Virus record (IMG/VR): IMGVR_UViG_3300042892_000300
Location: 1-55,423 of that record
DNA length: 55,423 nucleotides
Direction: 5' to 3' (one strand)
From: a virus
Lineage: Duplodnaviria > Caudoviricetes
Shown one piece after another: positions 2,866 through 41,243 of this stretch (the stretch's first letter is position 1; the number at the start of each line of letters is the position of its first letter). A model generated the notes under the pieces. That model ran no database searches. It was given only the letters and a program-made list of their open reading frames with translations, and was not told the origin of the DNA. The position numbers and the translations under genes were made by a program.

Positions 2866-3081
2866 TCATAAGTCAGCCGCTAGATTAGGGGCATCGGAGG
2901 CAAACTTCGTCAGTTCACCCAACACTTGGCATCTGCCCTGATAAATGCCAGTGTGTTCTACCGCGCTTGGTAGGCGACGAAGCTCCATCATCTCCCATTC
3001 CCGCAGCCAACTCAGAAGAATTGGAAACTGCCGGACGGAAGCTGCGAGAGCTTTCGTTACCTGTGGGTCAGGTCGGATCAC
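2866..3081 (-). CDS. Small conserved portal-adjacent protein
   Basis: 71 aa, GTGA overlap with portal stop; YQGR motif; typical position. Confidence 0.6.
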   Translation of the reverse strand: MIRPDPQVTKALAASVRQFPILLSWLREWEMMELRRLPSAVEHTGIYQGRCQVLGELTKFASDAPNLAADL

Positions 3082-5504: not shown

Positions 5505-6893
5505 TCACGTCCAACCACCTGCTGCAACCTGCTTGATTTCACGCCGCTCAGCGAGTTGCCCCGCCTCACCGCCGCTGTGCATGTGGAGCGCCAGATACTG
5601 CAACGCCTCAGCGATATGTGAGTGCTTGTTCTTATCGATGACCCCATCAGCTTTCGGCTTATATCTATACCCACCCATCATCGCTGCCTTGAGTGCAGTG
5701 CATCGCGGGTCGAGCAGGAACCCCGGGTCACCGTCCACCTGCCGCATCAGATACTCATCGACCGCGTTGATCCGCGCCGAGACGTTGTTGGTCTTGGCCG
5801 CAATGACCTTGAACCCCTCAGCCTTGATGATGTCCACGGCGCTGCGCTCGTCGGTCTGCGCCCGCTGCGTACCCGCAGGATCGGTTACGATCAGCACCGG
5901 GGCACCGCTGAACTTCTCATAGAGCAGCGGCTTGAGTATCGTCCGGACAAACCGCTGAACACCCATGTCGAAGCTCGCTGCCTCGGCGAGTACGAGCATC
6001 CGCCCCCTCGGGTCTTGCTGTCCGATGACTGCCGCAGGTGTCAGACCCAAGTCCATACCGACGATTATGGGCCGTAGCCCGTTGGTAATACCACGTATGG
6101 GCTGCTTGGCCATGTGGTAGTCAGGGCGGAAGTATTTGTACACCGGCTGTCCGGCGCTTGACAGGCCGTACTCACCGTCGATGAAGACCCTGACATACTC
6201 CTCCGACCGACCCTGCGTATCGTAGTACCCGTCCGGCAGGTTCTCGATATTCTCGGCATAGGGACTGCGCCCCGAGGGCTGCTTGAACACATCCCAGCCA
6301 TTGTCGTTGGCGCTGACTGCGTCCTTGGGGTCCAGCTTCTCCATCTGGTAATACCACCATGTGTCCATAGTCGGCGGGTTGGTATCGCCCCACATCCCAT
6401 GCCATGAGGGACCGCCGTCCTTGGCCGACGGGAATCGCCCGATACGTTTGGACATGGCGTCAACGATATCTGGGTGGATATCCCGGCACTCGTTGAACCA
6501 CGCAAAGGTAAGTTCCAGCGAGTTGAGGTTGGCCACGTCATCGGCGTCATCGAGCGCCCGGAACATGATCTCGCACTCCACATCCCCGACCTTGAAGAAG
6601 TAGGTCTTCTTCGTCCGCATCCAGACCCCGCACTGACCCGGTGGGAACCAGTCGAGGAACGTCTTGATCGTCGTATCCTCAAGCTGCCGCGCCGTTTCGC
6701 GGACGACAACTGCCCGAGTGCGCCGCACCCCCCGGTCATCGGGCTTCTGCATCGACGCCCGCCGGATGATCTCGAACGAACAGGTCACTGACTTGCCTGA
6801 CCCAACAGGACCCATCAGGGTCCGCATCTTGGCGTCACTTTCCATGAACAGTTTGCCCGTAGGCGGTGGCGTATAGTTGATCTGAAGTGCCAT
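5505..6893 (-). CDS. terL: Terminase large subunit
   Basis: Walker A GPVGSGKS, Walker B-like AWFNE, DTNPP coupling motif, RNase H-like GMDLGLTPAA, C-terminal SHIAEALQY. Confidence 0.93.
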   Translation of the reverse strand: MALQINYTPPPTGKLFMESDAKMRTLMGPVGSGKSVTCSFEIIRRASMQKPDDRGVRRTRAVVVRETARQLEDTTIKTFLDWFPPGQCGVWMRTKKTYFFKVGDVECEIMFRALDDADDVANLNSLELTFAWFNECRDIHPDIVDAMSKRIGRFPSAKDGGPSWHGMWGDTNPPTMDTWWYYQMEKLDPKDAVSANDNGWDVFKQPSGRSPYAENIENLPDGYYDTQGRSEEYVRVFIDGEYGLSSAGQPVYKYFRPDYHMAKQPIRGITNGLRPIIVGMDLGLTPAAVIGQQDPRGRMLVLAEAASFDMGVQRFVRTILKPLLYEKFSGAPVLIVTDPAGTQRAQTDERSAVDIIKAEGFKVIAAKTNNVSARINAVDEYLMRQVDGDPGFLLDPRCTALKAAMMGGYRYKPKADGVIDKNKHSHIAEALQYLALHMHSGGEAGQLAERREIKQVAAGGWT

Positions 6894-25601: not shown

Positions 25602-28600
25602 TCAGTACGAGAGGATGTCGAACGTGCGTTCGATGTCTTCCCGTCCAGCCTTAGGGACTGTACGCAGGGTGCGCTCCTTGGCGGGACGCTTTGCCTCCTT
25701 CAGTGCCCGGGCCGACCGGCCACGGAAGTCAGCGATCTGGAGACCAGTACCCTTGGCACCTTTGTTCCACTCGTCAACAGCAGACTCGATCTCTCGCGCT
25801 CCAGCATTGTCGCCTTCGATCTTGGCCTTGACCCACGCCGCACGGAACCCAGCCACAACATCTCTCTGGTAGTCTGTGACCCGGTTGCCGATCCGGATGA
25901 CGCTATACTGTTCAGCCGCCGCCGCTGGGTAGAACCCGAGCAGGCGCGCAGCGAGTACACCAGCCCCGATATCCTCGTCGACGATAGAACCCTTGCGGTT
26001 CACGATTGCGTCTGCCTTGGCGTATGCCACGGTGTCACCGACCGCTCGCATCATGGTGACAGGCGACTCACGCGCAAGGTCAACAAGACTGACCCGCTCA
26101 GAGAATGGAACACGCATCAGGTTGGCCAAGAAACCAGCGGACCCAATGAGCGCCGAGGGGGCTGGACCAGCGATGTCTGTTAGCTCTCGACCAACGTCGG
26201 CACCTGCGAGTAGGATACCTGAGCCGGGGATCACATTACCCAAGGACACGCGCCCGCCGATGTCTGCTGGCACAGCGCGGTTGACTAGACCCTGCATGAA
26301 GAAGGGTGACATACCCGGGAAGATGCCGTCGAGGAACTTGGCAATCTCCATGCGGATGCTGCCGGACTTGAACCCGAGAGCCTGAGCGAGCGTGTCGATC
26401 AGGTCTTCGAGGTCTTCAGCGAAGGGCAAACCCTGAAGGCCAGACAGCATCCACAAACTAGCCAGCATGGCGATCTTACCATTACGAGACAAGTTAGAGA
26501 ACAACTGGATCGAGGTCGTCGGGAAGACCTTGTACATATACAGGAACGACTGGATGCCAGAACGCCATGCAGGTGGGCGGTTAAGCACCGAGTACTCACC
26601 CATGGTGAGGTTCAAGGCTTCGACGGCGAACCGCCGCGCCGACTCGCTGGCCTTCTTGTCAGATACACCAGCCGATGTCTGTCGGTTGTACTCAAGGCGG
26701 TAGGCAGCGAGACCCAATGTGCGGCGTGACGCCTGCTCAGTGAGGTTGAACGGTAGCATCCACCCATCGATGAACTTGCGCAGGAACCCTGAAGATGTCT
26801 GGCCGCGCGCTGTGTTGAGCAGCGCGTTGGTCTGTGCGGGGATCATAGCGCCCTCGCGGATTTCCTGTGCGATGAACGCTGCCTCATGGGCCTTGAGTCC
26901 GTACCGGGCCTGAAGGTCGGTGCTCTTGGTGATCGCGTCGTAGAACTCAGCCGTGTTGGCCTTCAGGTTCGTCATACCAAGGGCACCAACCTGTCCCATT
27001 GCTACATGGAACGCAGCCACAGAGGGACCCATGCCGAAGCCGCCGCCGAACCCATTGCTGGGGTTGTAGCTGGCGAGGAACGGCAGTCCATTGGTGTACG
27101 CACTGATCAGGTTGAGTGCACCCGTAGCGATGGACCCGCCGAGTTGCATGATACTGGTGGTTGCCCGAACGCGCGCCGCGATCTTACCGGTTTCAAAGTT
27201 TGATTCAGTGACGCTGCGGTTGTCGTCGAGGAACGCCACGGTACGCGAAGCCTCATTGTAGAACTGGTTGGCCCGCTTCGGCTTACCCGCAGGATTGGTC
27301 TGCTCGTACATGAACCGGTACCGCTCATACTCACGGGTCGCCAAAGCACGTTCGTCAGGCGTCAGATTGGTATCCTCAGACATGGCTTTGAGGTCAGCCA
27401 GCAGCTTGGCATCACCGTTCCATAGGCGCTGAGTGGACTCCATCGACAGGTTCATCAGTTCGCCCAACTGCGGACGCATGATAACCTTGGAGATCGTGGA
27501 CGCGCGCGAGTCGATGTGCCGGGACACAGCACGGATGGCATCCGGGTCAGCACCCGGAGTGAACGCGCGAAGCAAACGATTGCGAGCCGTACTGTTCTGC
27601 CGGGTCAACGCCGTGACCACCTTCTCAACTTCTTTCGGTGTGAGCGTGATATCCAACTGGCGCAGGCCATAGGTAAACTCATTGAGGTTTAGTTCCGGCG
27701 GTCCAGCGATGGCGTCAAGGGATGTCTCTGGCACAGCGCGTAGCACCACGGTCTGCATGGTAAACTCATTGGCATCCGGGCTGTACGCCTCAACCTCATA
27801 GGTCTTGTCACCGAAGATATCGTTGATCCCCTTGGCAATGCCTTCAGCTTCGCTCTGCGCTTCGACCTGCGAATAGATCAGGCGCTCGCGGTACGCATCT
27901 GCAAGGCGCACAATCTTACCGGTCCGAGGGTTGGTAGCCTCGACGCGGACTTGGAACTGGCCTTCGCGCAGCAGCGGCGTATACCCAGTCGCGAGTGTGC
28001 GCCGGGTGTACAAGTCTGCGTCCGAGTTGGACACCTCCAACATCAGGATTTGTTTGATCCTATTCTGGATCGTGAACTTGTTACCCTCCCCGAGTTTCAG
28101 GCGAGCGCGGAACGCGCGAAGCTGGGCGACGATATCGTCAGCCGCCTTGCCTTCGAAGAAGGTAGCGACCGCCGCGAAGTCACTGTCCTTTCCACCAGCG
28201 GGGATAAGCGTCTTGTTGACCGCAATGATGAAGTCGTTGCCGGACCCCATGGCGTCGGCATTGAGCCGTGGGTATCCACGCTCATCGAAGGTGATGTCTG
28301 CTGTATAGATATCTTTGTAGGTCTTGATGATGCGGCGCAGCAGTTCACGCTCAGCACTGGTCAGTCGCTTGGTCTCGACAAGTTCATCGAACTGCTTGAA
28401 CGCGATCTTCTGGTCTTCGAACAAACTCTGATAACGCGCCCGCAGAAGCTGGAGTTCCACATCGTTGACGGTTGCGCGCAGGCTGGTGTAACCGCGCCAC
28501 TCGATGCTGTCCTCAGTAAGCCCGGGGATGCCAGCAAACTTCTCAGTGCGCATCGTACCATCGGGCAGCGGCACGGTATAGGAGAAACCATCTCTGGCCT

Positions 28601-31600
28601 GCGCAAGAGTGACCATACCCTGCTTAGTGAGCTTGTCGATCTCGGGCTGGTTCGGCGTCAATACGCCGTCCTTAAAGTCGTATAGCGGTGTGCCCTTGAG
28701 TGTGCGAAGGTCCGTGATCTTGGAGACAGCCAGTCGCTGAGCGTCATACATCAGCTTGCTGATCATCGCGGTCTGTTCGTCGGTCGTACCGAAGTACTTC
28801 CCGAACACTGCCGTGTTAAAGACCTCAGCGTTCCGCTCGTTGCTCGACACACGAATGCTGGAGGTGAGGTTCCTTGCGGCTTCCAACACTTCTTCCAACC
28901 GGTTCAACCCCGGGTTCAGGCGCGAACGAAAGTTGGCAAGACTCAGGAACTCAGCCTTGAGGCGGTCGAACCGGTCGATGTTGTCGCCGGTAAGCCCCTT
29001 GATGGCACCCCATGCAGCTTCGAAGTCGGTCGGTGTACCACCCACGGTATCACGCACCAGTTCGGCAGACTGGTTGTCAGAATAGAGATCACCCACCGTG
29101 GAGAAGCGCCCGGTTGATACATACCCGAGACCATGCTCAGTGTCGTAGAGATCGCCGAAGACCTTGGCCGCGTCGAAGATGCTGGGCTTGCCGGTCCGGA
29201 CGTAGGAGCGGGCGTGTTTCAGGGTGTAGCGCACCATCTCGTCGCCGAACTTAACACCCAACTTGTTGAGCGCACCCTTGATGGCGTTCCAGACCCGGGC
29301 CACGACGCTGGTGTCCAGCACAGCAGCAAAGTCCGACAGGTATTCTTCGACTGCCTCAGCGCGCGGCATCCCATTGGCCACGGCGACATCCACGTCGGCC
29401 TTGATGGCTGGGCTGGCGTTGTATATCGCATCCATGACAGCGTTGAACTGTGCCGCAGGGATGATCCCGCGCAGGCCGAAGTGCCCGATGGTCTCATGCG
29501 CGAGGACAAAGTTCAGGTGCTGCTCGTTGGCAATGCGGTCCGTGAAGATCACGACGTTGCCGTCGCCGAACGAGAAGCCCGCAGCTTCCGCCGTAGCGAA
29601 GTCACCCTCAGGGCGAGACGCGATAGCCTGCTGGTAGAGCTTCGGGTTCTTGGCCTTCATGTCCGCTTGGTTACGAAACACAGACATCTTTGGCTTGGTT
29701 ACCAACCGCGAAGTGAACCGCGTGATGGCCATACGCAGCTTGCCAACAGCAGGATCAGGACGATCTGGTGTGTTGAAGTCAGAGAGTTTGAACCTACCCT
29801 CCGGTGCTGGCGGCGTCAGTAAGCGTTCTACCCGACCGATTTGTTTCGGCTGCTGTGTCGCAGTCGCTGTCTTCCCTGTAGTCGTAGTCGTAGTCGTAGT
29901 CGTAGACGTTGCAAATGTCTTACCAGTTGCAGCCGTCTCATCAGGCAGTACAAACAGAGCGCCACCGTCCATCTGGTCAGCGTTGGCCTCCATGACATCG
30001 ACGATGACAGATTTCATCGTATTGATACAACCCGTACTGATCTTGTTATCAGTAGCATCAGCGTTTGTGATGCGGCCCAAGCGGTTCTGACCAGTGGCTT
30101 GCACGATCCCATGCATCGCTACAAATGCAGCACCACCAGTTGGAGCCTGACTCCACACTAAGCCACCTGTCTCCGGGTTGACCAGTGCGTAGAGGACACC
30201 ACCTTCGTATCCACCGCGCGCAATCCGCATAAGGCGGAACTTACCTGCTGGAGTCTTACTCCCTGCAACCGCTTCTTTGGTGTTAACGATTGTGTCGCCC
30301 GTGTCTTTACCAAATAGAGCCGACGTGCTCGACAGATGTTTGCCATTCTTGTCGAAGATATGGACCATACCCGCTGGCTTGTCGGCGATGATGAAGCCTT
30401 TACCAGTGCGGATCGCGCCCGGGGCCACAGTCTCATACACCCCAATCGCACGGTCAGACATGCTAGGACGTGCCGCTGTGGGTACACTCTTGCGTACCTG
30501 AGATGTTTCAGTCGCGCTGGCGACCTGATTGAGCGTAGCCGCGTTAGCCGCTGAGAACCGCGAAGTACCGATAGGGTTGACAACAACAGTGAATGCCACG
30601 ACGGCGACTACGAGTTTGCGTATGATAGGGCGCAGTGCGGCCTTGAGCGAGTCCAATCGAGACGGCTGTTTAATCGTGGCAATGGTATCGTTGACGAGGT
30701 TCTCGCGGACAGTGCCGTTGTATTCCGTCTCGTCGTAGGCTTCAGCAGCAGTCTGCTTCTCTTCAGTGGTGAGTGTTTTATCTACGAGTTTACCCACCTC
30801 AGCGGCTTCACGTTCGAGACGCGGGGCTTCTACCGGAGTGCTGCCGGGTTTCTCAGTAGAGACAACGCTATAGATCGGCTTGCCAAATACCTCAGCGACG
30901 GGCTGCATGTTGGCTTTGCCGTCAGCAGTGAAGTAGCTGCGCAGTGGGTAGCCATTGACGATAGCGTCCCGGTCAGCCTCGTTCACCGTGGTATAGAACT
31001 GCTCCAGTGCTGCCGGAAGATTGGCGTATGTCTCCCTGCCGCTGCCAGCTTGTGAGAAGGTGAACGGCTTGTCGAGGCTGGATGTCTTCAAGTTACCGTT
31101 GATCAGCGCCGTCACCTTGGACAGCGAGACGTTGGATGCCAGCAGCTTTGAGTCTGGTTTTGGTGCCTTGGTCTGGGCAGGTTCGACCTTAACCGCGAAG
31201 GCTTCAGTCGCGGCCTCACGGATCGCGTCGTCTTTGAGACGCGCGATGTCACTGACGTTACCTCGGCCAGTGGTGATCGAACTAACGAGGTCATTGTCCA
31301 CAGCAAACTGGAGCCATGGGCGTGGCGAACCATCTTTGCTAGACGCCGAGAGTTCTTCACTCTTCGCCAGACTGTTGGCCAGTTCAACGAACTGATCCTC
31401 GATAGTCTTACCCACACCATCTTCGGGAAACGTCACCTCGATGAATGCTCGGGCCTTGTCCGTGGCGTTCTTGGCAGCAGCACCAGTACCGGGTTCAGAG
31501 AAGTATGCGACCTCGACGAGATCATACACAGCCTCCTCGATGTCGGCCTTTGATTTGCCGGTCTCAACGTAGTCGATGGCGCTGTCCACCTGCTCACCGA

Positions 31601-34064
31601 ATGTAGGTAGCAGATCGCGTTCCTCCTTGGGGGAGCGACGAGTCTTCTTGGGTGCAGGTACAGCAGCCTTTACAGGCGGAACAACTTCTCGCGGTTTCGC
31701 CGGAACAGGTTCGACTTTGGTTTCTGCTTTTGCTTCGGACTTGGCGGTGCTTGCTCCGGCAGTTCCGCGTCCTCCGGCAGGTCGCTTGAGAGCTTCTCCG
31801 CTAGCTCCGGGTTGTTTTGCTGGAGGAACCTTAGCTGCTTCTGGCTTTTTAGCTGCACGGAGCTTTCCCCCCTTCGGTGGCGTCGGTGTCGGCGTGATGG
31901 CTCCAGTCACCACAGTGACCGGGGCAGTCTTAGTGAGACGGGCTGCGTTCTCTGCCTGTACCAGTTCCACACGGATGGTACGCAGATCGTCTTCGGTCAG
32001 TTCACCAACCGATGCCATGTTGAGGGCGTCGATCCACTGAGCTTGGATTTCGGGGAGAAACTTATCGAATGCCTTACGCCGACCGGGGCCAGTGGCGAGT
32101 GTGTTCCAAGCTGTCGTCGCCTGCTCAGGCGTCGTGCCAAGTTCGGGGCTAAGGATTGCTGTCTCAGCCGCCAACAACTCAGGCTGTATCTGCTGGAGTG
32201 TCTGACCTCTACGAAGTTCCACGGTCGGTACGCGCGCGGCTTCCTGCTGCGCAGCAACTGCCTGCTGTGCGGCGTCAAACGCTGCTTGACGTTCAGCAGT
32301 TACGGGTGCAGCCTCTGCGCGCTGTTGCATGGCGCGAAGAACTGGGTTGTCTGCGAGTGTACCTGTCGGAGCCGCAGGCTGGGCGAAGAAGCGCGGGGGT
32401 AGACCTGTCTCAAGCGGGAGCACGTCTTGGATTTGTGGACGTTCAGTCCCCTGTGCAAACGGCAACTCCATCTGCTGGTCGGTGCCAGCGACAGGTGCTT
32501 CGCCAAGACCAGCAACTGGAAACATCTCTCCTTGGGTTGGGGCAGCACCAACAGTGGGTAATGGTGCGACTCCTGTGCCTCCGGTGAGCGGTAGCTCCCC
32601 CTCAGGTGCGCTGTAGTCCGGTAGCCGCCCTTGTGGCGCGGGCAACGCCAATGTCGGAGGTGCCTCTGGAGCGGGCAGTGCGAGCGGAGGAGCGGGCAGA
32701 GCCAGCATCTGGTCCGGGTTACCACCCTGCAAGACATCCGCAGCCTTCTTGCCCTTCAGGTTTGCGAGGCCACCGAGAGGCCCGCCGACAGCGAAGCCAG
32801 CAGCGAACGAGTTGATGAGGCGCTGGACGTTCTCGGGCTTGGAGAAGTCCTGATCCGACAGACCCAGAAGCAGAGCCTCCTGACCTGCCTCTGTGGCACC
32901 TTCAGCAGCACCGCCAACGGCGGTACCCGTACCCACGCGACGAAGGAGTTCAGCACCACGACGGGGCAGGGACGTACCAGCAGCAATGGCTGCGCGACCA
33001 CCGGCACCGAAGAGGCGGCTGGCGAGAGCGAACTCAGGCAGCAAATCGAGAAAGGCATACGGCAGCGACCCGGCAACAGCCGTCAGTCGGGCACCCACAT
33101 CGTCAGCATCAGCACCCTGATCCCTGAGTTCTCCGTAGATGTCTGAAGCCCCAAGGGCCATACTGTTGGCGACATTCGCAGCCGTCGCACCCGTGATTGC
33201 CGCAGCATTCCGTAGTAGTTTAGCCTGAGCCGCGTCAAGAACCTCACCAGCGGCGCGCTTGCGGGCGGCTGCAAGCACAGAGTTCTTCCACGCGGTCTTA
33301 CCGACGAGACCAGCGACAGCACCACCAGCAGCAGCCAGCGGACCACCAGTGAAACCACCAGCTACGGCACCGGCAAGACCGGCACCCACGGACTCCAGCA
33401 GCATGGGACCCTGCTCGCCCAGCGTAGCGACGAACCAGTCGATGGCATCATCTCCGCTCTGGATGTCGGTGAACTGACGCGCGTAAGGCTCAGTCTTGCG
33501 GAGGTCTTCGACCTGCTGTGCGACGGTGCGACCACCGAACTCTTCGGCACCAAGAAGCTGAGCGCCGCGACCAGCGAGCATCTGGAGGGAGTCGATGCCT
33601 CGCCCGAACCCTTTACTGAACAACTCACCACGGCTGGGGTTCCGGATGATCTGAGTATATTGTGCGTAGGTGCCCGGGTCTAGCTGTCGGAACCCCGCAG
33701 GAAGCTGACCGACCGGAGCGCCACTCAGTGTGGCCTCAGCCTCAAGCGCAGCTTGGGCATCATCGGCAGTGAAGCGACGACCCTGCACATAGAGTTCATC
33801 TCCCGCTGCACTGACACCGATGACAGGCGTAGGCGCTCGCTGTGGTGGGGCCATGAGATCAGCGAGGGACGCTCGCGACCGGGAGAGAAATCCACCAGCA
33901 AGAGCAGCCTGATCAGCAGCCGAAGACCCGAGACTTCCTACACCAGTGGGACTACTGGCTGGCATGGATGGTGCTGTAGGTAGAAATGGATCAGCCGATA
34001 CTCCAGAGACCGCGCCAGTGAGGAAGGGGTCGTTATTGTAGCTCAGACCGGCTTTAGGTGCCAT
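25602..34064 (-). CDS. Giant internal virion/DNA-ejection polyvalent protein (about 2,820 aa) with L,D-transpeptidase, zincin and PLxRFG-like regions
   Basis: Last late gene; hydrophobic Gly/Ala N-terminal region, AMHG...ISTGCIN, LAHETIGH.G, YTPLLREG; ATG 34064 preferred over track start 34085. Confidence 0.8.
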   Translation of the reverse strand: MAPKAGLSYNNDPFLTGAVSGVSADPFLPTAPSMPASSPTGVGSLGSSAADQAALAGGFLSRSRASLADLMAPPQRAPTPVIGVSAAGDELYVQGRRFTADDAQAALEAEATLSGAPVGQLPAGFRQLDPGTYAQYTQIIRNPSRGELFSKGFGRGIDSLQMLAGRGAQLLGAEEFGGRTVAQQVEDLRKTEPYARQFTDIQSGDDAIDWFVATLGEQGPMLLESVGAGLAGAVAGGFTGGPLAAAGGAVAGLVGKTAWKNSVLAAARKRAAGEVLDAAQAKLLRNAAAITGATAANVANSMALGASDIYGELRDQGADADDVGARLTAVAGSLPYAFLDLLPEFALASRLFGAGGRAAIAAGTSLPRRGAELLRRVGTGTAVGGAAEGATEAGQEALLLGLSDQDFSKPENVQRLINSFAAGFAVGGPLGGLANLKGKKAADVLQGGNPDQMLALPAPPLALPAPEAPPTLALPAPQGRLPDYSAPEGELPLTGGTGVAPLPTVGAAPTQGEMFPVAGLGEAPVAGTDQQMELPFAQGTERPQIQDVLPLETGLPPRFFAQPAAPTGTLADNPVLRAMQQRAEAAPVTAERQAAFDAAQQAVAAQQEAARVPTVELRRGQTLQQIQPELLAAETAILSPELGTTPEQATTAWNTLATGPGRRKAFDKFLPEIQAQWIDALNMASVGELTEDDLRTIRVELVQAENAARLTKTAPVTVVTGAITPTPTPPKGGKLRAAKKPEAAKVPPAKQPGASGEALKRPAGGRGTAGASTAKSEAKAETKVEPVPAKPREVVPPVKAAVPAPKKTRRSPKEERDLLPTFGEQVDSAIDYVETGKSKADIEEAVYDLVEVAYFSEPGTGAAAKNATDKARAFIEVTFPEDGVGKTIEDQFVELANSLAKSEELSASSKDGSPRPWLQFAVDNDLVSSITTGRGNVSDIARLKDDAIREAATEAFAVKVEPAQTKAPKPDSKLLASNVSLSKVTALINGNLKTSSLDKPFTFSQAGSGRETYANLPAALEQFYTTVNEADRDAIVNGYPLRSYFTADGKANMQPVAEVFGKPIYSVVSTEKPGSTPVEAPRLEREAAEVGKLVDKTLTTEEKQTAAEAYDETEYNGTVRENLVNDTIATIKQPSRLDSLKAALRPIIRKLVVAVVAFTVVVNPIGTSRFSAANAATLNQVASATETSQVRKSVPTAARPSMSDRAIGVYETVAPGAIRTGKGFIIADKPAGMVHIFDKNGKHLSSTSALFGKDTGDTIVNTKEAVAGSKTPAGKFRLMRIARGGYEGGVLYALVNPETGGLVWSQAPTGGAAFVAMHGIVQATGQNRLGRITNADATDNKISTGCINTMKSVIVDVMEANADQMDGGALFVLPDETAATGKTFATSTTTTTTTTTGKTATATQQPKQIGRVERLLTPPAPEGRFKLSDFNTPDRPDPAVGKLRMAITRFTSRLVTKPKMSVFRNQADMKAKNPKLYQQAIASRPEGDFATAEAAGFSFGDGNVVIFTDRIANEQHLNFVLAHETIGHFGLRGIIPAAQFNAVMDAIYNASPAIKADVDVAVANGMPRAEAVEEYLSDFAAVLDTSVVARVWNAIKGALNKLGVKFGDEMVRYTLKHARSYVRTGKPSIFDAAKVFGDLYDTEHGLGYVSTGRFSTVGDLYSDNQSAELVRDTVGGTPTDFEAAWGAIKGLTGDNIDRFDRLKAEFLSLANFRSRLNPGLNRLEEVLEAARNLTSSIRVSSNERNAEVFNTAVFGKYFGTTDEQTAMISKLMYDAQRLAVSKITDLRTLKGTPLYDFKDGVLTPNQPEIDKLTKQGMVTLAQARDGFSYTVPLPDGTMRTEKFAGIPGLTEDSIEWRGYTSLRATVNDVELQLLRARYQSLFEDQKIAFKQFDELVETKRLTSAERELLRRIIKTYKDIYTADITFDERGYPRLNADAMGSGNDFIIAVNKTLIPAGGKDSDFAAVATFFEGKAADDIVAQLRAFRARLKLGEGNKFTIQNRIKQILMLEVSNSDADLYTRRTLATGYTPLLREGQFQVRVEATNPRTGKIVRLADAYRERLIYSQVEAQSEAEGIAKGINDIFGDKTYEVEAYSPDANEFTMQTVVLRAVPETSLDAIAGPPELNLNEFTYGLRQLDITLTPKEVEKVVTALTRQNSTARNRLLRAFTPGADPDAIRAVSRHIDSRASTISKVIMRPQLGELMNLSMESTQRLWNGDAKLLADLKAMSEDTNLTPDERALATREYERYRFMYEQTNPAGKPKRANQFYNEASRTVAFLDDNRSVTESNFETGKIAARVRATTSIMQLGGSIATGALNLISAYTNGLPFLASYNPSNGFGGGFGMGPSVAAFHVAMGQVGALGMTNLKANTAEFYDAITKSTDLQARYGLKAHEAAFIAQEIREGAMIPAQTNALLNTARGQTSSGFLRKFIDGWMLPFNLTEQASRRTLGLAAYRLEYNRQTSAGVSDKKASESARRFAVEALNLTMGEYSVLNRPPAWRSGIQSFLYMYKVFPTTSIQLFSNLSRNGKIAMLASLWMLSGLQGLPFAEDLEDLIDTLAQALGFKSGSIRMEIAKFLDGIFPGMSPFFMQGLVNRAVPADIGGRVSLGNVIPGSGILLAGADVGRELTDIAGPAPSALIGSAGFLANLMRVPFSERVSLVDLARESPVTMMRAVGDTVAYAKADAIVNRKGSIVDEDIGAGVLAARLLGFYPAAAAEQYSVIRIGNRVTDYQRDVVAGFRAAWVKAKIEGDNAGAREIESAVDEWNKGAKGTGLQIADFRGRSARALKEAKRPAKERTLRTVPKAGREDIERTFDILSY
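29878..29906. repeat. (GTAGTC)n microsatellite encoding a poly-Thr linker
   Basis: gtagtcgtagtcgtagtcgtagtcgtag. Confidence 0.85.
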
Positions 34065-34071
34065 GAGTTCT

Positions 34072-34392
34072 CTACCCTCTACCAATCACGACGTGCCAAT
34101 GGGGACCAGTAGCATAGCTGACGGGGTCGTTGACTTCGTCCCGCCCTTCAATAACCCGGTACCCTGCTTGTTGTATAGACCCAACGTAGTCCGCGAACGT
34201 CATGCCCGGGATAGGCGCAATGTCCACGGCGGCAGCGGTCTTGACGTGGTACGAGTCTGGGTTCTTCTGACCCAGCGCACTACCTGCTGCACGAGTAGTC
34301 TGTGTAATGCGAGCGCCCGGGAACAACTGCTTGATGACAGCCCCGCCATTGGCGACAGGCGTACCCGGTTCCTTGAAGCGCGTGGCGCTAGG
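34072..34392 (-). CDS. M15-family (Hedgehog/DD-peptidase fold) peptidoglycan peptidase domain; start uncertain, probably reached by +1 frameshift
   Basis: R...SYH......VD...GPHWHV zinc ligands; no in-frame ATG before the first zinc ligands; frame overlaps the end of 34388..36106. Confidence 0.7.
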   Translation of the reverse strand, partial: PSATRFKEPGTPVANGGAVIKQLFPGARITQTTRAAGSALGQKNPDSYHVKTAAAVDIAPIPGMTFADYVGSIQQAGYRVIEGRDEVNDPVSYATGPHWHVVIGRG

Positions 34393-36106
34393 GTTGAAAG
34401 GTACCCGGGGTAGTAAGCCCCGCACCTCCCATTCCTTCAACGGGGACTGCCCCGTACCGCGTGACTTCCTTGTCACCAATCGTAACGGTTTGCCCTGTGG
34501 GGTTATAGTAGAAAGCCTGACCTGTCGCCTTGTCAGTAATGATTGCGCCTTCGCCCATCACCCTGACATCGACTCCACGCTGCTTCATACTCTCCAAAGC
34601 TCGCTGTGTATTACCCTGCATCTCAGTCACAGCAAGTGTTCGGATAGATGTTGCCAGTTGATTTGCTGCGTCTTGCGATGACTTAATATTACCCTTGAAC
34701 TGTTCTTTGCTGATGTCGAGATTGTAATCAAATATCTTCGCTGACTGCGCAGCGATTGCCGCTTCGCGGCTGGTGCGCCACGCCGTGTCGAACATAGCGC
34801 GGGCGCGGCCAACCACATCATCTCGGGACAGGTCCCTAGCAATCGTCGTGGTCTTGTCGCCGGTATCAAGTCGGACGATGTTGAACTTACCATCATCCCG
34901 TGGCTGCACCGCCACAGGTACGCCCATGTAGTGGGTCATGATTGCATTCAACCGACGTGGGTCATTCAACGACCCGAACTCAAGGATACCTTGAGTGCCC
35001 TGCATCACGGCCATGTTGTTGTCGATCTGGTCGATGACGCCCTTCAACTCAAAGAACTTGGCGCTGTCGGCTGGCGACCGTGCCCGCGCATAGATCGTCG
35101 CGAGACGTGCAAGTTGCTCCCGCTTCGTCATGGCGTTCTGCATCTCAGGCGAGATCGCCTGCGGGTTTCCGAGATACCACTCGACGGGGTTCTGACTGGC
35201 CTGTGCCTGAGCTTCAGGAGTTGGGGCCGAGACCGAGGCCACGGGTGCTTCCTGATTGACCTGCGTCGTCACCTGTTCAGTTACAGCCTGCTGCTGGGCC
35301 TTCTTCGTTGCCGGTGTCTGCACACCAGCGAGTGGTACCTTCGCTGCTGCCTTCGCTGCTGCCTTTGCTGCCGGGGCCTTGGTAACTTCCTTATAGAACG
35401 CAACTGGGTTCGCCTCTGCCGAGGCCAGCATCTCAGGGTTGGCCCGGAAGTACTTGTTGGCGGCAGGGGACTTATACCACTGGGCGGCGGTATCACCCGC
35501 TTCCATCTGGCGCTTCTCGGTCTGGGATGCGAATGGTTTGCGGATGGTGCTAAAAGGTACATTAGCCGCTACCACCAGACCTGATAGTCTGTTGTTTAGT
35601 GTTGCTTCGTTCTGGGCCTGAATACGACCCTGCGTCACATCTGATGCATTAGGATCAATCCGGCGGAACCCAGCTACACCTTCGCCTAGCCGGTCGCCCG
35701 TCTTTGGGGCGGCAACCGCAGGGACTTTGGCCGCGACAGCGGGCTTAACCGCAGGGGCCACGGGGGGAGTTGCAGCAGCTTTAACCACGGCTGCGGGCTT
35801 AACCACAGGAGCCACGGCTGCGGGTGTGGTCCGCAAGACAGGCAGACCAGTAGCGGGAAGCTGCACACCAGCCGAAGTAGCAGCAGGGGCTGTGGGCATT
35901 ACACCACCGGGAGGTGTCAACCCGGGGACAATCTGCTGGCCGATAAGATTGGAAGCCTCAGCCTCCAGTTCCTTCATCTTCCGCGCTTCGCGGTTCTGGG
36001 CCTCGATAGCCAGTTGGTTCTGGCGATCCAGACGTGCGGCCTGCTTCGCTTCGTCGAACGACGTAACGCCTGCACCTGCGGTAGCGAGAAATGATCCCAG
36101 AGACAT
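34388..36106 (-). CDS. Internal virion/DNA-ejection protein
   Basis: 572 aa Ala/Pro/Gln-rich, AGGAG RBS, middle of three ejection-type genes. Confidence 0.65.
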   Translation of the reverse strand: MSLGSFLATAGAGVTSFDEAKQAARLDRQNQLAIEAQNREARKMKELEAEASNLIGQQIVPGLTPPGGVMPTAPAATSAGVQLPATGLPVLRTTPAAVAPVVKPAAVVKAAATPPVAPAVKPAVAAKVPAVAAPKTGDRLGEGVAGFRRIDPNASDVTQGRIQAQNEATLNNRLSGLVVAANVPFSTIRKPFASQTEKRQMEAGDTAAQWYKSPAANKYFRANPEMLASAEANPVAFYKEVTKAPAAKAAAKAAAKVPLAGVQTPATKKAQQQAVTEQVTTQVNQEAPVASVSAPTPEAQAQASQNPVEWYLGNPQAISPEMQNAMTKREQLARLATIYARARSPADSAKFFELKGVIDQIDNNMAVMQGTQGILEFGSLNDPRRLNAIMTHYMGVPVAVQPRDDGKFNIVRLDTGDKTTTIARDLSRDDVVGRARAMFDTAWRTSREAAIAAQSAKIFDYNLDISKEQFKGNIKSSQDAANQLATSIRTLAVTEMQGNTQRALESMKQRGVDVRVMGEGAIITDKATGQAFYYNPTGQTVTIGDKEVTRYGAVPVEGMGGAGLTTPGTFQP

Positions 36107-36124
36107 GTAGGCTCCTACCTAATC

Positions 36125-37207
36125 TTAGCCGATGGCGCTGGGTGCAGACTGGAACCCACCGATGACGGACCCAAACAGCTTCGCGATATCGGCGGCTTGC
36201 TGGCGCTTGGCTTCCTCAGCCTGCTTACTCAGCCCAGAAATCCGACTCGCCTCCTCAGTCGATGAAGGGAACGCGGAGGGAAGTGACGCCAGACCGGCTT
36301 GCCGCACTTTCAACTGGCTTTCTAAACCGGTGCCGTAGCCCTGCTGGAAAGCGGAACCCGCTGAACGCGAAGTATCCAGACGCCCACGGCGGCGCTCAGC
36401 GGAAAGTCGTTCACCTGTTAGACCGCGTGTAGACTCCGCAGTTTGAATGCCACCCTTAGTAATAGCAGCCTGCGCGGCTTGTCGCCCGAAGTAGTTGGGG
36501 TCAAGTTGTTTAGCTTGATTAAGAAGACCCACCGATTCAGAGAGCCGAGTGTTGTACAAGTTCTCGTTCTGTGCCCGTGCTTTCTCAAGCTCTGCCATCT
36601 GGATACCAGTCAGCGTGTTGGCAACGCCACCAGAAGCAGCCAGACCACCTACTAGCTTTGGCGCGACACTCTGAAACACCGGGTTGGATACGATCTTGCC
36701 AGCGGTGGCACCAAGACTACTTAACGCACCACTCAAGCCCCCGCCGCCAGCGGAGGCCGCAGCAGGGAGGGCCGCACTGATCCCACCAATACCAGCACCG
36801 ATGCTCGCCGCACTCGGCACCGCGCTTGGTGCCGCAGTGGCAAGACTACTACCGATAGTCCCGAGATTGCCGAGATTAGTTGCGGCGTTCGCTCCTCCAG
36901 CAAACGTAGAGCCTGCTGCGCCCGCCGTACCTGCGGCTGTGCCCGCCGTACCTGCGGCTGTGCCCGCCGTACCTGCGGCTTTTGCAGCACCAAAGAGCGG
37001 ACCAGCACCAGCACCAATGCCACCCGTGATAGCCCCGACGAGAGGGTCACCACCAGTAGCCGCGCTGACACCAGCACCGAGACCCGCACCAATAGCGATG
37101 GTGGCGATAGTGCCCGACACACCGATAGCTCCAGCGATGAAAGGCGCAGCGTAGGGGATGGCGATCATTGCAGCAACCGAGACGATAATTTTAAGTGTCT
37201 TGCTCAT
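36125..37207 (-). CDS. Internal virion/ejection (pilot) protein, P22 gp7/T7 gp14-like position
   Basis: 360 aa, hydrophobic Gly/Ala-rich N-terminal half, helical C-terminus. Confidence 0.65.
   Translation of the reverse strand: MSKTLKIIVSVAAMIAIPYAAPFIAGAIGVSGTIATIAIGAGLGAGVSAATGGDPLVGAITGGIGAGAGPLFGAAKAAGTAGTAAGTAGTAAGTAGAAGSTFAGGANAATNLGNLGTIGSSLATAAPSAVPSAASIGAGIGGISAALPAAASAGGGGLSGALSSLGATAGKIVSNPVFQSVAPKLVGGLAASGGVANTLTGIQMAELEKARAQNENLYNTRLSESVGLLNQAKQLDPNYFGRQAAQAAITKGGIQTAESTRGLTGERLSAERRRGRLDTSRSAGSAFQQGYGTGLESQLKVRQAGLASLPSAFPSSTEEASRISGLSKQAEEAKRQQAADIAKLFGSVIGGFQSAPSAIG
36920..36980. repeat. 21-bp tandem repeat x3 (GCCCGCCGTACCTGCGGCTGT)
   Basis: Visible in sequence; encodes AGTAAGT repeats. 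Confidence 0.85.
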
Positions 37208-37647
37208 CGGTGCGCTCCCAGAGACATTCGCATATAGGCACAGGACTTATCAAACCCGAACTTGTTAGTGTATAGCATAGCCCGTTCGGCAGGGACATAG
37301 GCATCTAAGAACTCAATCTCGTTGGCCTTCAGCCACTCGATGATAGACTTCCAGTACCGACGCTTGAATGTGATGAGATGCTTGCCTGCTAACGCAATGA
37401 GGTCTGCCCCCTTGTGGCCGTTGGCCATATGGAACTGGATACCCACGGTGCAGACTGGTTTGCTGTCTATCATACCACAGAAGATGACGGCTTCGCCTGC
37501 TTCAGCAACGCGCCGTACATAGGCTGCGTCCATCTCGTCCTTGGCGATCTCGTTACCCACCGCAGCTTCTTCAAACAACGGTTCGAGGTAGGACCACAGT
37601 TCGGCAACACGCGCGGGGACAAGCATCTCGATAGTGATGTCGGTCAC
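37204..37647 (-). CDS. Putative GNAT-fold virion assembly protein
   Basis: 147 aa before ejection genes; LYTNKFGF motif. Confidence 0.5.
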   Translation of the reverse strand: MTDITIEMLVPARVAELWSYLEPLFEEAAVGNEIAKDEMDAAYVRRVAEAGEAVIFCGMIDSKPVCTVGIQFHMANGHKGADLIALAGKHLITFKRRYWKSIIEWLKANEIEFLDAYVPAERAMLYTNKFGFDKSCAYMRMSLGAHR

Positions 37648-38457: not shown

Positions 38458-38805
38458 TTACCCTCGTAACTGCGTGATCAGCGCGTTCAGTGTAGCTCGC
38501 AGAGACGCTACATCATTCGCCAGTGATTGTACATTACTAACAAGGAGAGTGTAGTCTCCCAACGTAGGAACCGCTCCGCTACCAACACTAAAACCTGCGC
38601 CTTGTGCCGTTACCCGCTGCATGGTCTGGGCTGGGGCACCAGTTATAGTAACGCCCCCCTTGGTTATTGCCTGACTGGCACCATCAACTTCGCCGCGCGT
38701 ACCAGTGAGTAGCTCGACGTTCTCTTTCAGTGCCGACAAGGTGATGTACTGCCACGGCGAGACATCAGTCTGCGGGATTTGTGGGATTGCGGTGAACCTA
38801 GCCAC
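38458..38805 (-). CDS. Small tail protein (needle/plug-like)
   Basis: 115 aa after nozzle; C-terminal heptads VQSLANDVASLRATLNALITQLR. Confidence 0.5.
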   Translation of the reverse strand: MARFTAIPQIPQTDVSPWQYITLSALKENVELLTGTRGEVDGASQAITKGGVTITGAPAQTMQRVTAQGAGFSVGSGAVPTLGDYTLLVSNVQSLANDVASLRATLNALITQLRG

Positions 38806-41243
38806 TATGCTTCCCTCAACCCAGTGGGGGTCTCTGCGAGGTGGATAGCACGGATACGGACTGTACCTTCCACACTCACTTCGAAGGTATCCGAGCGATA
38901 CCCCGTAGGGAGGCGGAACACAGTGCCGCTGTTCAGCGAAGACTCGTAGATAAGCGCCTTGTCGACCCAGAGTTTGAACGTGACTTCATCCCCCGCAGAC
39001 CACAGCATCGTCTCGCTCTGCCACTGCTGTGTGGCAGCATTCCACAGCGTGGTGATAGATGTGTAGTCGGCGATTACCCGAGCGGCACCGAGGTTCAACA
39101 TGTCCTTGGTCTTGATGACCTTAGACTTCCAAGTCTGTACAGACGGCGGCTGTGTTAGATCATCCCACTGATAGATGTCTCCGTCGCTGCCGTCGACGTA
39201 GAACAGATGTCCAGCTACAGGGTCGTACCAAGAGGCAGAGAAGCTGTAGTCTAGGTTGACATACTGCCCTCCTACCGATGGAACTGGTTCGAAAGTGAAC
39301 CCTCCCGTAGAGTGCGAAGCTAGATAAGCATCACCGTAGAACGCGCCGACAACGGTAGAGGGGTCAAGCTCCTCGCTCCATGTATCATTGTTGAAGTTCG
39401 TCTTGGTTGCGAGCATCGGACCGCCACCGGTAGAATACACAGCCATGCCATCATGAGACGGCCAGATAACTCCATAGTTCATGGAGACGATACCCTTGCG
39501 GTTGAGGCAAGGGTACAGAACATCGACACGCTGGACAGTTATGACCGCTGGGTCGTTGCCTTGTAAGATGTATGGGTAGCCCTCAGTCAGAACGAGGATC
39601 GAGCCATTGGTCAGCGCAAGCCCTACGATGTTGTACTCAAACGTCTTGGCATAAAGCTGCGGCCATGCGTGGGGCCTCCCGGGTTCCGAGAGATACAGCT
39701 TGTTACCCACAAAGCCGACGAGGATATTATTCTGTGCAGCGATCACCCCCTGCAAGTCGTTCGGTGGTGCATCATACTCATCGGACGCGAGCACGTCGGC
39801 CAAGTTCAGTGGATCGAAGTCGTCGATGAAAGCATAGTTACCACCGTCGCCCCAGTAGCGCGCCGTGTCTGTAGTCTGGTCCTCGCTCACATCCATGAAC
39901 ATGGTGCCTGCGGCCACGGTTGTGCTGGCAACATTCGCCGCCGTCTGCGCATACTCAAACGTGTAGTCGTCGACGATGTCAGTCACGATACCACCGGAGA
40001 TATCGAACGACGCCTGTGAGCAGCCTGAAATCTTGAACCGATCTTCGATGCCGAGATTGTGCGGGAAGGCCAGCGTCACTCGCGATACGTTCGCTGTGCG
40101 CTGCACCAAGGTCAGCGCCGTAGGGAACCACAGGGTCTTGAGTCGGAAGTACTCCGCATCCCCCGCTGTAGCGAGAGTGCGATACAGTCGAACACCACGG
40201 ACGAAGTTGTTCCCCTCCGGCTTCGCAGTGGGTAGGTCAGGGATCGTGACGATCACCCCATCCTTGACGTAGATATCAGTAGAGGGGTCGGACGCAATTG
40301 ACTCCTCGTCCCATGGCGTCATCCATGTGAAAACATACGAGCGCGACTGCGGAGGGCTACCTAAGTCGACCCGACCTGAGTAGTTGGTCGTCGTCGTGAC
40401 TCTGGGTCCGGGGCTGAAGTAGGTGAACGACGTGTCGTTCACCACTGTGATCGCGGTGCTTGTCGCGTTGAAGGTACGGATGTCCATGCGGACGCCGCCG
40501 GTCAGACTCTCGATTGTTGGGACCGTGATGGTGAAGGTCCCCGAGGTTACACCCGAGATAACGTAGCTGCCGTTTGCCGGACGTGGGTTGTCTCCGGCGT
40601 TGCCGCCAGATGTGAACTCTAGGGTGACAGACGCGCCGTCTGATAGGCCATGGCCACTGATGCTGATTGTGACAGTCGAGGACGACTGAGAGTACGTCCC
40701 GCCCATGAACGTGAAGCCCGTGATCGTGACGCTCGCACCGTCACGCAGACCGTGAGGGGTAGTCGTTACAATCGTGGCCGTGTTGTTGACATCACGCGCG
40801 TAGCTCACCGTAGTCTCGGTGGCAAACTCAGTCACTTCTGTTGTCAGCTTCTCAGTCGGAAGCGGTAGGCCGAGGTCGTAGTACCCAATGGGGTAGGCAC
40901 CGACACCCGTGGTAGCCAGCAGATAGTTGCTCACCTTCGGGACGCCGTCCCCTGTGTAGTAGAACCGTTGGTCGTCCAGTTCAGACGCGGTCACGATAGC
41001 GATGTTCACATCGGTCAACCATGACAACCACTTGTAGGCCCCTCCGCTATCACGCAAGGCGTAGAGAGTCCGGATTACGCCAGTACGCCCGCAGTTGTCG
41101 GTGATCACGGGTTGCGGGTACGGGATCAGATCACCCGAGTAGAGCTTACAGTTGTTGGCAATCTGACTGGCAGTATCCGGCAGCAACTCCGGAGATACCT
41201 TCGGCGCAATGCCGAGGAAGGTTGTGATCTTGACGCCAGCCAT
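38805..41243 (-). CDS. Tail nozzle/stabilisation protein (P22 gp10-like) with inserted beta domains
   Basis: 812 aa; F.GIAP, LYLSEPGRPHAWP, YPCL..KGIV, WKSK, FRLP.GY motifs. Confidence 0.7.
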   Translation of the reverse strand: MAGVKITTFLGIAPKVSPELLPDTASQIANNCKLYSGDLIPYPQPVITDNCGRTGVIRTLYALRDSGGAYKWLSWLTDVNIAIVTASELDDQRFYYTGDGVPKVSNYLLATTGVGAYPIGYYDLGLPLPTEKLTTEVTEFATETTVSYARDVNNTATIVTTTPHGLRDGASVTITGFTFMGGTYSQSSSTVTISISGHGLSDGASVTLEFTSGGNAGDNPRPANGSYVISGVTSGTFTITVPTIESLTGGVRMDIRTFNATSTAITVVNDTSFTYFSPGPRVTTTTNYSGRVDLGSPPQSRSYVFTWMTPWDEESIASDPSTDIYVKDGVIVTIPDLPTAKPEGNNFVRGVRLYRTLATAGDAEYFRLKTLWFPTALTLVQRTANVSRVTLAFPHNLGIEDRFKISGCSQASFDISGGIVTDIVDDYTFEYAQTAANVASTTVAAGTMFMDVSEDQTTDTARYWGDGGNYAFIDDFDPLNLADVLASDEYDAPPNDLQGVIAAQNNILVGFVGNKLYLSEPGRPHAWPQLYAKTFEYNIVGLALTNGSILVLTEGYPYILQGNDPAVITVQRVDVLYPCLNRKGIVSMNYGVIWPSHDGMAVYSTGGGPMLATKTNFNNDTWSEELDPSTVVGAFYGDAYLASHSTGGFTFEPVPSVGGQYVNLDYSFSASWYDPVAGHLFYVDGSDGDIYQWDDLTQPPSVQTWKSKVIKTKDMLNLGAARVIADYTSITTLWNAATQQWQSETMLWSAGDEVTFKLWVDKALIYESSLNSGTVFRLPTGYRSDTFEVSVEGTVRIRAIHLAETPTGLREA

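Follow-up and report, generated by a model that had tools for sequence, protein, structure and literature searches.

Programmed +1 ribosomal frameshifting, UUU_Y shift sites, Shine–Dalgarno (SD) stimulators and virion-borne hydrolases are already known. Here we describe a junction at which they may come together, located at the 3′ end of a putative ejection protein gene on the minus strand of a complete IMG/VR virus record of 55,423 nucleotides (nt) from a lake-water phage (IMGVR_UViG_3300042892_000300; Duplodnaviria, Caudoviricetes), which is called the window below. The gene encodes 572 amino acids (aa), and a peptidase-like domain encoded in the +1 frame beyond its stop codon would be added to the protein by a +1 shift. 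Several described systems share parts of this layout. In Listeria phages, tsh of PSA, A118 and A500 (CCC_UGA) and cps of PSA likewise give two products per gene, a virion protein with and without a C-terminal +1-frame extension, and SPP1 gp17.1* is another +1-extended phage structural protein. In these cases the stimulator is a 3′ pseudoknot or the stop alone, and an Ig-like/decoration domain is added to a capsid or tail tube protein, whereas here the candidate stimulators (an SD-like sequence and a hairpin) are upstream, the site is UUU_Y, with CCC_UAG in the clade of the window only, and an enzyme domain would be added to an ejection-type protein. Phage lambda G/GT, a −1 frameshift on a heptamer in the tail assembly chaperone gene, likewise sets the ratio of the short and long forms of a morphogenetic protein and is conserved in position across diverse phages; its extension is without an enzyme domain, whereas the junction described here would have an enzyme domain, the +1 direction and an ejection-type gene. 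T7 gp16 carries a lytic transglycosylase domain in the virion on an ejected protein and is thus comparable as a peptidoglycan-degrading domain on an internal/ejection protein, but there the domain is in the normal frame, whereas here it would be reached only by recoding and has a predicted minimal LAS-type fold rather than that of a transglycosylase. In Escherichia coli prfB (RF2), an internal SD-like sequence also lies upstream of a P-site codon whose tRNA re-pairs in the +1 frame, with the SD 3 nt from CUU and UGA in the A site; here the spacing is 25–31 nt instead of ∼3 nt and the A-site codon is a sense codon instead of a stop, and the SD-like GGAGG would come close only via a folded hairpin.

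The candidate shift site and both candidate stimulators have been described separately. UUU_Ynn is particularly liable to +1 shifts in bacteria, also in the absence of a stop codon, and is thought to be used for Yersinia YopN–TyeA and for an activator of an integrative and conjugative element (Mesorhizobium FseA), and the site of influenza A PA-X is UCC_UUU_CGU (PMC5009743; this paper, PMC6321510 and PMC3639245 are drawn on in excerpt throughout). The junctions described here share the shift-prone UUU_Y tetranucleotide with these cases and with amalgavirus, and 61 of the 67 junctions counted below have the UUU_CGN form, as amalgavirus does. The hosts and genes are other ones, and an upstream SD combined with a hairpin is not noted for those cases in the excerpts; moreover, CGN is rare in the eukaryotic UUU_Y cases, whereas CGC is the commonest arginine codon here. 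Both internal SD duplexes and stable upstream hairpins near the E site increase +1 shifting on E. coli 70S ribosomes, where the hairpin reached ∼60% of the internal SD effect (PMC6321510). How far a hairpin attenuated −1 shifting depended on its stability and on its lying within a few nt, and in yeast this hairpin also promoted +1 shifting (PMC3639245). These engineered refolding hairpins (Huang 2018, PMC6321510; Cho 2013, PMC3639245) resemble the one described here in being stable, a few nt upstream and near the E-site codon, and their effect, dependent on stability and proximity, mimics an internal SD duplex; they are designed reporters (the prfB-type site CUUUGA without RF2, PMC6321510; Ty1 CUU_AGG/CGG), whereas here a natural and conserved element appears to offer both kinds of duplex.

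In the window, the 572-aa open reading frame (ORF; P0002, 36106..34388, minus strand) ends with GGT ACC TTT CAA CCC TAG C, in which CCC TAG at 34393–34388 (CCC 34393–34391, TAG 34390–34388) is both the stop of the 0-frame product (..PGTFQP) and a candidate shift site. The +1 frame is open from 34479 to a stop at 34074–34072; at the junction it reads CCT AGC GCC..., it contains SYH..VD..HWH, and its only possible starts are TTG 34479 and GTG 34425. A first-pass annotation made from the sequence alone had noticed the CCC TAG C end of the 572-aa ORF, the open +1 frame and the histidine and aspartate motif, and had proposed that slippage at CCC-UAG adds a peptidase to an ejection protein. Its observation is real, as sequence, ORFs and translations agree, including the 105 further +1-frame codons past the 0-frame stop and the lack of any ATG in the open +1 frame (34479 to 34072); it is also more than chance, the +1 arrangement being seen again in 67 of 85 distinct related junctions. 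The idea of recoding is supported as well, but probably at another site than the one proposed: the family-wide site is TTT_C at 34399–34396, two codons earlier, behind GGAGG and a hairpin. The fusion length of 677 aa was right and is the same from either site. Recoding into the +1 frame very probably yields the peptidase-like domain, as an extension at the C-terminus of the virion protein encoded upstream. For the window we favour programmed +1 slippage at UUU_C, driven by the internal SD-like sequence and the upstream hairpin and leading to the 677-aa fusion, with a probability of about 0.62. That recoding occurs in the window at one or the other of UUU_C and CCC_UAG is likely; that UUU_C is the main shift site there is probable, with less assurance.

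The relatives on which this reading depends were collected from several sources. The region 33000–37300 had no blastn match among 50,697 phage records, and a tblastn search of phage records with the domain gave only two matches, Pseudanabaena phage Pam1 and Sphingopyxis phage VSN-002. In Pam1 (L001, ON014753, locus 5935–6279) the domain is in the +1 frame after Pam1_14, with TTT T at the site; GenBank annotates only the final 49 domain codons, as Pam1_15 'hypothetical protein', and the conserved N-terminal half is unannotated. In VSN-002 the 390-aa protein of gene_41, which the depositors label as P22-injectosome translocase, has the domain in frame at its C-terminus; the depositors' label for the counterparts of the upstream protein in both phages is P22-type injectosome protein. 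Scans of viral, metagenome and genome contigs, in which loci were picked via peptide patterns and one scan covered 80 of 116 matches, gave a related set of 157 sequences including the window. Four copies of the window's own region were left out (L003, L040, L070 and L078) and three loci were missed by the motif search (L071 and L074, which were classified by hand, and L077, a fragment), and the remaining 150 loci with the domain reduce to 85 distinct junction and domain sequences. The domain is in the +1 frame behind an upstream ORF in 67 of the 85 (217–576 aa in 65, cut by the contig end in two) and in frame with a long upstream ORF in 14; in the other four it is N-terminal on the downstream giant protein or the sequence is a fragment. 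L071 is one more in-frame fusion; in L072 and L074 it is the downstream protein that carries the domain. As hosts, the records name Pseudanabaena and Sphingopyxis, to which contig titles add Sphingomonadales, Burkholderiales, Chthoniobacterales and other metagenome-assembled genomes (MAGs).

All 67 +1 junctions share a cassette that consists of GGAGG, a hairpin directly after it, 4–6 unpaired nt, and an in-frame TTT, the next base being C in 65 junctions and T in two. The GGAGG is read as GGA GGY in the 0 frame and lies 25, 28 or 31 nt from TTT; the hairpins have 6–11 predicted pairs, a 4–7-nt loop and a minimum free energy (MFE) of −8.9 to −18.3 kcal/mol. The 0-frame codon after TTT is CGC in 59 junctions, CGT in two, CCG in two, and CCC, TCA, TCG and CAA (the window) in one each, and the 0-frame stop follows TTT at a distance of one codon (41 junctions), two (one), three (20), four (two) or eight (three). 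Codon choice within the cassette is frozen: TTT is used at the site in 67/67 junctions versus 65% elsewhere in the same ORFs, and the first glycine codon is GGA in 67/67 versus 16%. In the window (all on the minus strand), the SD-like GGAGG is at 34429–34425, encoding Gly-Gly as GGA GGT, and the hairpin is at 34404..34424, with a stem of five G–C pairs (34422–34418 with 34410–34406), a 7-nt loop (34417–34411) and a possible outer U34424–G34404 pair. The proposed shift site UUU_C follows at 34399–34396 (TTT 34399–34397), 25 nt after GGAGG, and would have Phe570 in the P site. The +1-frame extension (34072..34398) comprises 107 codons from TTC and the stop, and encodes a linker (NPSATRFKEPGTPV) and a LAS-like domain of ∼92 aa.

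The hairpin is conserved as a structure and not only as a sequence. In an alignment of 18 sequences from several lineages (A4), 97.2% of the cells are paired and five of eight pairs have changed on both sides; the observed values were reached in 0 of 500 shuffles, and slid registers pair at 33–52%. A second register, represented by an alignment of 20 sequences (A5), is 100% paired, with three of eight pairs changed on both sides. There are 17 distinct 5′ hairpin arms, and background 25-nt windows in the same ORFs have a mean of −3.1 kcal/mol, with 2.4% reaching −8.9. Judged by these compensatory changes, the family helix is real. A covariance model of the element (R1), whose training set included a sequence of the window's lineage, has a single match in the 55-kb window, at the junction (34379–34438), and the region 34200–34600 has no Rfam match at E ≤ 1. 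Two further pairings were seen at the element. At 34394–34432 of the window (minus strand), GGGAGGU can pair with ACCUUUC to give an extended helix of −19 kcal/mol (z −2.6), and in the 41 of 67 junctions that have C as the last base of the E-site codon, CUUUC is complementary to GGAGG (with two G–U pairs).

The pattern of variation shows where the reading frame of the encoded protein changes. In the best-sampled clade, the most variable sites upstream of TTT are 0-frame third positions, and the +1 frame shows no coding-type pattern there; from ∼30 nt downstream of TTT, variation is highest at +1-frame third positions (0.37–0.42 versus 0.04–0.07), and the +1 domain is under strong purifying selection downstream of the site. 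Next to the site, the base after TTT-CGC is T, G or A, by which the +1 frame keeps alanine (GCN) and the 0 frame gives a stop, glycine, arginine or lysine. For example, a +1-type junction (L115, TTT C CCG GTC AGT AAT) and an in-frame one (L084, TTT CCA GTG AGC AAC) both read F-P-V-S-N, and the four third-position differences in P-V-S-N are all synonymous in the peptidase frame. This pattern indicates that the +1 frame is read from the codon after TTT, which would place the shift at TTT_Y and not at the variable stop.

In-frame fusions in relatives, which the first-pass annotation had suggested looking for, are common: gene_41 of VSN-002, 14 of the 85 junctions, and long proteins in a profile search. 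That search covered 1.84 billion representatives and gave 386 clusters at E ≤ 1e-3; among the best 150 representative proteins of these clusters, 144 have at least 200 aa, a figure that, like the other protein lengths, is not a frequency, as clusters at 50% identity under-count short ORFs. The domain in the listed proteins is mostly C-terminal (in proteins of 300–470 or 830–940 aa) or N-terminal (1000–1900 aa). The five in-frame fusions that were examined first have neither GGAGG nor the helix. Two others, L081 (2971–3060) and L084 (2974–3060), keep the SD-like sequence (GGAGG in L081, GGGAG in L084), the hairpin and TTT_C, and have GTG 6 nt after TTT. With TTC CAG TGA in the +1 frame, slipping would here produce the short form, apparently the reverse of the common layout. 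L141 keeps a degenerate copy of the cassette. The peptide signature GG-x(7,8)-F precedes the domain in eight of 12 in-frame representative proteins inspected.

According to the favoured reading, most ribosomes would read ...Gly-Thr-Phe-Gln-Pro and stop, giving the 572-aa protein, and a fraction would slip by +1 with tRNA-Phe on UUU (34399–34397) in the P site, re-pairing with UUC. After the slip, decoding would continue with AAC CCU AGC... to the 677-aa protein, in which the last ∼92 residues would form a LAS-type (Hedgehog/DD-peptidase fold) domain. The GGAGG could pair with the anti-SD of 16S rRNA; the hairpin, which ends 4–6 nt before UUU, would refold one to three bases behind the E-site codon and bring GGAGG near the shift site, and the combined duplex would favour the forward move to UUC. 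We infer in this way that the slip occurs at UUU_C and what part the SD-like sequence and the hairpin play in it, as well as the efficiency, the activity of the enzyme and its delivery with the ejected proteins. Frameshifting might then set a sub-stoichiometric dose of the enzyme, as the first-pass annotation had supposed.

A number of points weigh against this reading. The A-site codon is mostly CGC, and there is no obvious slow A-site codon, CGC being the commonest arginine codon in these ORFs (352 of 973). The hairpin effect seen in vitro required an empty, RF2-free A site (PMC6321510). In the linear sequence of the window, GGAGG is 25 nt from UUU, a distance at which a prfB-type effect would require the hairpin to be folded, and the model assumes that the hairpin refolds 4–6 nt from the P-site codon in the bacterial ribosome. 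The window itself has the weakest hairpin of the 67 (MFE −8.9 kcal/mol); because of this, of a GTG preceded by AAGGA and of CCC_UAG two codons on, its product could arise otherwise. Counts over the 67 junctions are not of independent events, as the junctions are related. Finally, since the cassette is also present in in-frame fusions, its primary role might be other than frameshifting, e.g. pausing; this retention weakens the simple frameshift story, yet suggests the most interesting one, to which we return below.

Slippage in the window at CCC_UAG, the site first proposed, would move tRNA-Pro from CCC to CCU with the stop in the A site, and the 677-aa fusion would read F-Q-P-S and not F-N-P-S; we consider this unlikely, though it deserves attention. 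CCC TAG C is present in the window, and the stop in the A site gives a pause that UUU_CAA is without. In addition, the 0-frame products of close homologs (P0196–P0198) end with ..TFQP and the +1 frame of P0004 and P0005 reads FNPS, and the two together imply CCC TAG throughout the shallow clade of the window. In Listeria phages PSA, A118 and A500, the +1 site in use in the tail gene is CCC_UGA (PMC5009743). The conservation of CCC-stop, which the first-pass annotation had named as a check, ends with that clade: CCC precedes the stop in just one of the 67 distinct +1 junctions, that of the window. The conserved upstream elements are in register with TTT, and the distance from the hairpin to CCC is 6 nt greater; among relatives, TTT_Y is fixed and the 0-frame stop shifts by 1–8 codons, and the +1 frame is under selection straight after TTT. 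CCC_UAG may nevertheless be a second site in the clade of the window. A different explanation, which we regard as improbable, dispenses with recoding: the peptidase would be a separate 117-aa protein made from GTG 34425 (34423..34425, minus strand; or from TTG 34479), the product of an ordinary overlapping gene. Gene callers do start the peptidase ORF at this GTG (P0003, 117 aa), which has AAGGA (34437–34433) 7 nt upstream; they predict proteins of 87–117 aa in many relatives, P0004 and P0005 begin at the equivalent codon, and at least one ATG, GTG or TTG is present in the open +1 frame before the site in 51 of the 67 junctions. The other 16 have none, and in two none appears before the conserved FP motif is reached; the +1 frame of several junctions opens just 10 codons upstream, at a stop abutting GGAGG. 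Where start codons are present they differ in position among junctions, and no start position is conserved, which was a further check named by the first-pass annotation. GTG 34425 itself takes its first base from the end of the conserved GGAGG, with TG coming next, and most relatives have no start codon there. This alternative, which had been noted from the outset, is possible for the window's clade alone. A separate start also leaves unexplained the frozen GGA and TTT, the covarying hairpin and the many in-frame fusions, and would run through a +1 frame that lacks coding-type constraint upstream of TTT. On the evidence of the compared junctions, start codons cannot explain translation of the domain across the family.

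Two explanations of other kinds fare worse. The GGAGG and hairpin could form a split ribosome-binding site, for which T4 genes 38 and 25 are the comparison, or a pausing or coupling device, with a non-canonical start after the hairpin or with pausing between domains. The folded hairpin would indeed put GGAGG at an effective 4–6 nt from TTT/TTC, and the in-frame fusions L081 and L084, in which GTG follows, have retained the element; but most junctions have neither ATG, GTG or TTG nor a start with one mismatch at a fixed place after the hairpin, where the codons are TTC GCN GAY/AAY, and pausing alone would not translate the +1 ORF, which makes this explanation very improbable. A sequencing or assembly indel would look as the locus does, i.e. 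a frame change of one base between halves that are fused in relatives, and a decaying pseudogene would be a related case. We give this hardly any credence, and independent contigs exclude the 1-nt assembly indel that the first-pass annotation had wanted checked. The junction is identical in another IMG/VR contig (L040), and 34388–34430 shows no differing letter and no gap in Logan contigs of three more lake/freshwater runs of different years (X7 and X12 from 2016, X21 from 2017); moreover, 67 distinct sequences have the same frame offset, with the +1 domain under strong purifying selection. Four further candidates were rejected: transcriptional slippage (there are only three to four T's and no long homopolymer), termination–reinitiation (TAATGG has its ATG in the wrong frame, and a start near the stop is missing from many loci), a −1 slip on G_GGT_TTC (the direction is wrong, from the peptidase frame to the short frame) and bypassing of the T4 gene 60 type (there are no matched take-off and landing codons).

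The favoured reading, programmed slippage at UUU_C, can be extended to the family as a whole. The retention of the cassette in in-frame fusions means either that both forms are needed, with single-base indels flipping the default, or that the element has a further role such as pausing. Tentatively, and at somewhat less than even odds, we suggest that internal SD, near-E-site hairpin and UUU_Y form a portable cassette that moves with a minimal LAS domain among unrelated ejection-protein genes, in phages of cyanobacteria, Sphingomonadales and other Gram-negative hosts, and that both protein forms are needed. In this proposal, single-base indels would have flipped L081 and L084 to a state in which the long form is the default and a +1 slip leads to TGA two codons later and to the short form. 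The cassette would then be, as far as searched, the first natural 5′ hairpin and SD-like driver of +1 shifting on bacterial ribosomes without a slow A-site codon.

The upstream proteins give some indication of what is being extended. Neither P0002 itself nor 10 upstream proteins of relatives have a Pfam, PHROG or NCBIfam family, apart from sub-threshold chance matches and one unnamed PHROG. BLASTP of P0002 against Pam1_14, gene_41 of VSN-002, P0041, P0045 and P0050 gave no significant similarity; across lineages, the upstream proteins have only the last ∼15 codons in common, and a search for related loci with P0002 found only the near-identical IMG/VR contig. The close homologs of P0002 mentioned above (P0196, P0197 and P0198) are 84–96% identical to it. 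Its distant homologs (620–757 aa; P0199–P0228) are without the GG...TF end and carry an internal insert of ∼140 aa, located where the window protein has an Ala/Lys/Gln-rich linker (around residues 240–300). In P0214 the insert is the SLT domain of Pfam (E 2e-16), and SLT is also given for eight further listed homologs by precomputed Pfam assignments; in other distant homologs the insert is lysozyme-like or without assignment. At least part of the P0002 family thus appears to have an in-frame wall hydrolase, whereas the clade of the window has no SLT insert and carries the cassette and the LAS domain at the protein end instead. This suggests that wall-hydrolase modules are swapped within one virion protein family. 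The SLT domain of the homologs and the location of the gene in the virion module mark P0002 as a predicted ejection/internal virion protein.

For the +1-frame domain, neither its sequence (P0001) nor an alignment of 27 sequences (A2) has a family in Pfam (E ≤ 0.01), PHROG or NCBIfam, and a search of Protein Data Bank (PDB) sequences with the domain profile gave only noise at E > 0.6. An AlphaFold model from the 27-sequence alignment has a pLDDT of 93 and a pTM of 0.85. Foldseek found no PDB match for it at E ≤ 1e-3 (the best was Hedgehog-N, E 0.2). In an exhaustive VIA-align search, the top ranks are all LAS-type folds, with modest Z scores below 8: the Streptomyces Zn DD-peptidase 1lbu is first (Z 5.7, root-mean-square deviation 3.5, 85 residues aligned), followed by the zinc-binding C-terminal domain of VldE (Z 5.5) and Hedgehog N-domains (ShhN/Hh, Z 5.0), with VanXYg, Ply500, DacB and LysB4 at lower ranks (Z 3.4–3.9). 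The zinc-ligand motif of LAS enzymes is H-x(3-6)-D ... H-x-H. In SYH-x7-D...HWH, the three histidines (those of SYH and HWH) and the aspartate are the same in 27/27 sequences, and we take them as putative zinc ligands by this motif, with the difference that the spacing here is H-x7-D; the putative ligand codons in the window are His 34248–34246, Asp 34224–34222, His 34101–34099 and His 34095–34093 (minus strand). The domain is probably a LAS-like, zinc-dependent wall peptidase. We call it LAS-like and do not file it in M15, as the fold scores are modest and there is no match to a curated profile; the earlier 'M15-type' label thus goes further than a modest LAS-fold match and the invariant H..D..HxH, with no Pfam, NCBIfam or PDB sequence match, allow.

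As far as searched, what is new here is the conserved combination of an SD-like sequence with a near-E-site hairpin, the addition of an enzyme domain to an ejection-type protein, and the spread of this arrangement over phages of diverse hosts. A literature search pairing 'ribosomal frameshifting' with 'ejection protein' found no paper, and further searches for such an element found no paper describing one, judged by titles and the starts of abstracts; ejection, injection, peptidase and hydrolase are not mentioned in PRFect (PMC10885494), nor is 'ejection' in the excerpts of the Atkins review. If confirmed, the cassette would add a widespread and anatomically well-defined +1 signal to the few known in bacteria and phages, with an upstream-stimulator layout (an SD-like sequence fused to a hairpin 4–6 nt from the P-site codon) whose function has until now been demonstrated in designed reporters alone. 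With a length of ∼40 nt, natural compensatory variants and its presence in the cultured and structurally studied Pam1, it allows direct tests of how 5′ duplexes act physically at the mRNA exit channel. Confirmation would also correct many phage annotations that call the domain a truncated orphan ORF or a 'soluble lytic transglycosylase', and would reveal how a wall-degrading enzyme is dosed in the ejection apparatus of podovirus-like phages. In-frame variants with a retained cassette provide a natural experiment on the short/long ratio as a selected trait.

The gene layout of the window is podovirus-like. A portal-like gene is at 3078–5144, a terminase gene at 5505–6893 and a gene with a PHROG match to phrog_511 'internal virion protein' at 38805–41243, and several fibre genes are also present. 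The 572-aa gene is located between the phrog_511 gene and the next gene on the minus strand (34064..25602, ATG at 34064), which encodes a giant virion protein of 2820 aa whose C-terminal 500 aa match phrog_11358 (5e-31).

Other placements of the domain were observed among the relatives. In L069, L072, L074 and L075, from phages and prophages, the domain is the N-terminus of the downstream giant protein (∼1000–1150 aa), and such N-terminal placements include a Novosphingobium genome contig and an Allosphingosinicella MAG. In P0008 and P0013, a different N-terminal segment of ∼80 aa (..AIAEYRRSG.HLGIF..QEA.AYAE..) is in frame before the domain and replaces the cassette.

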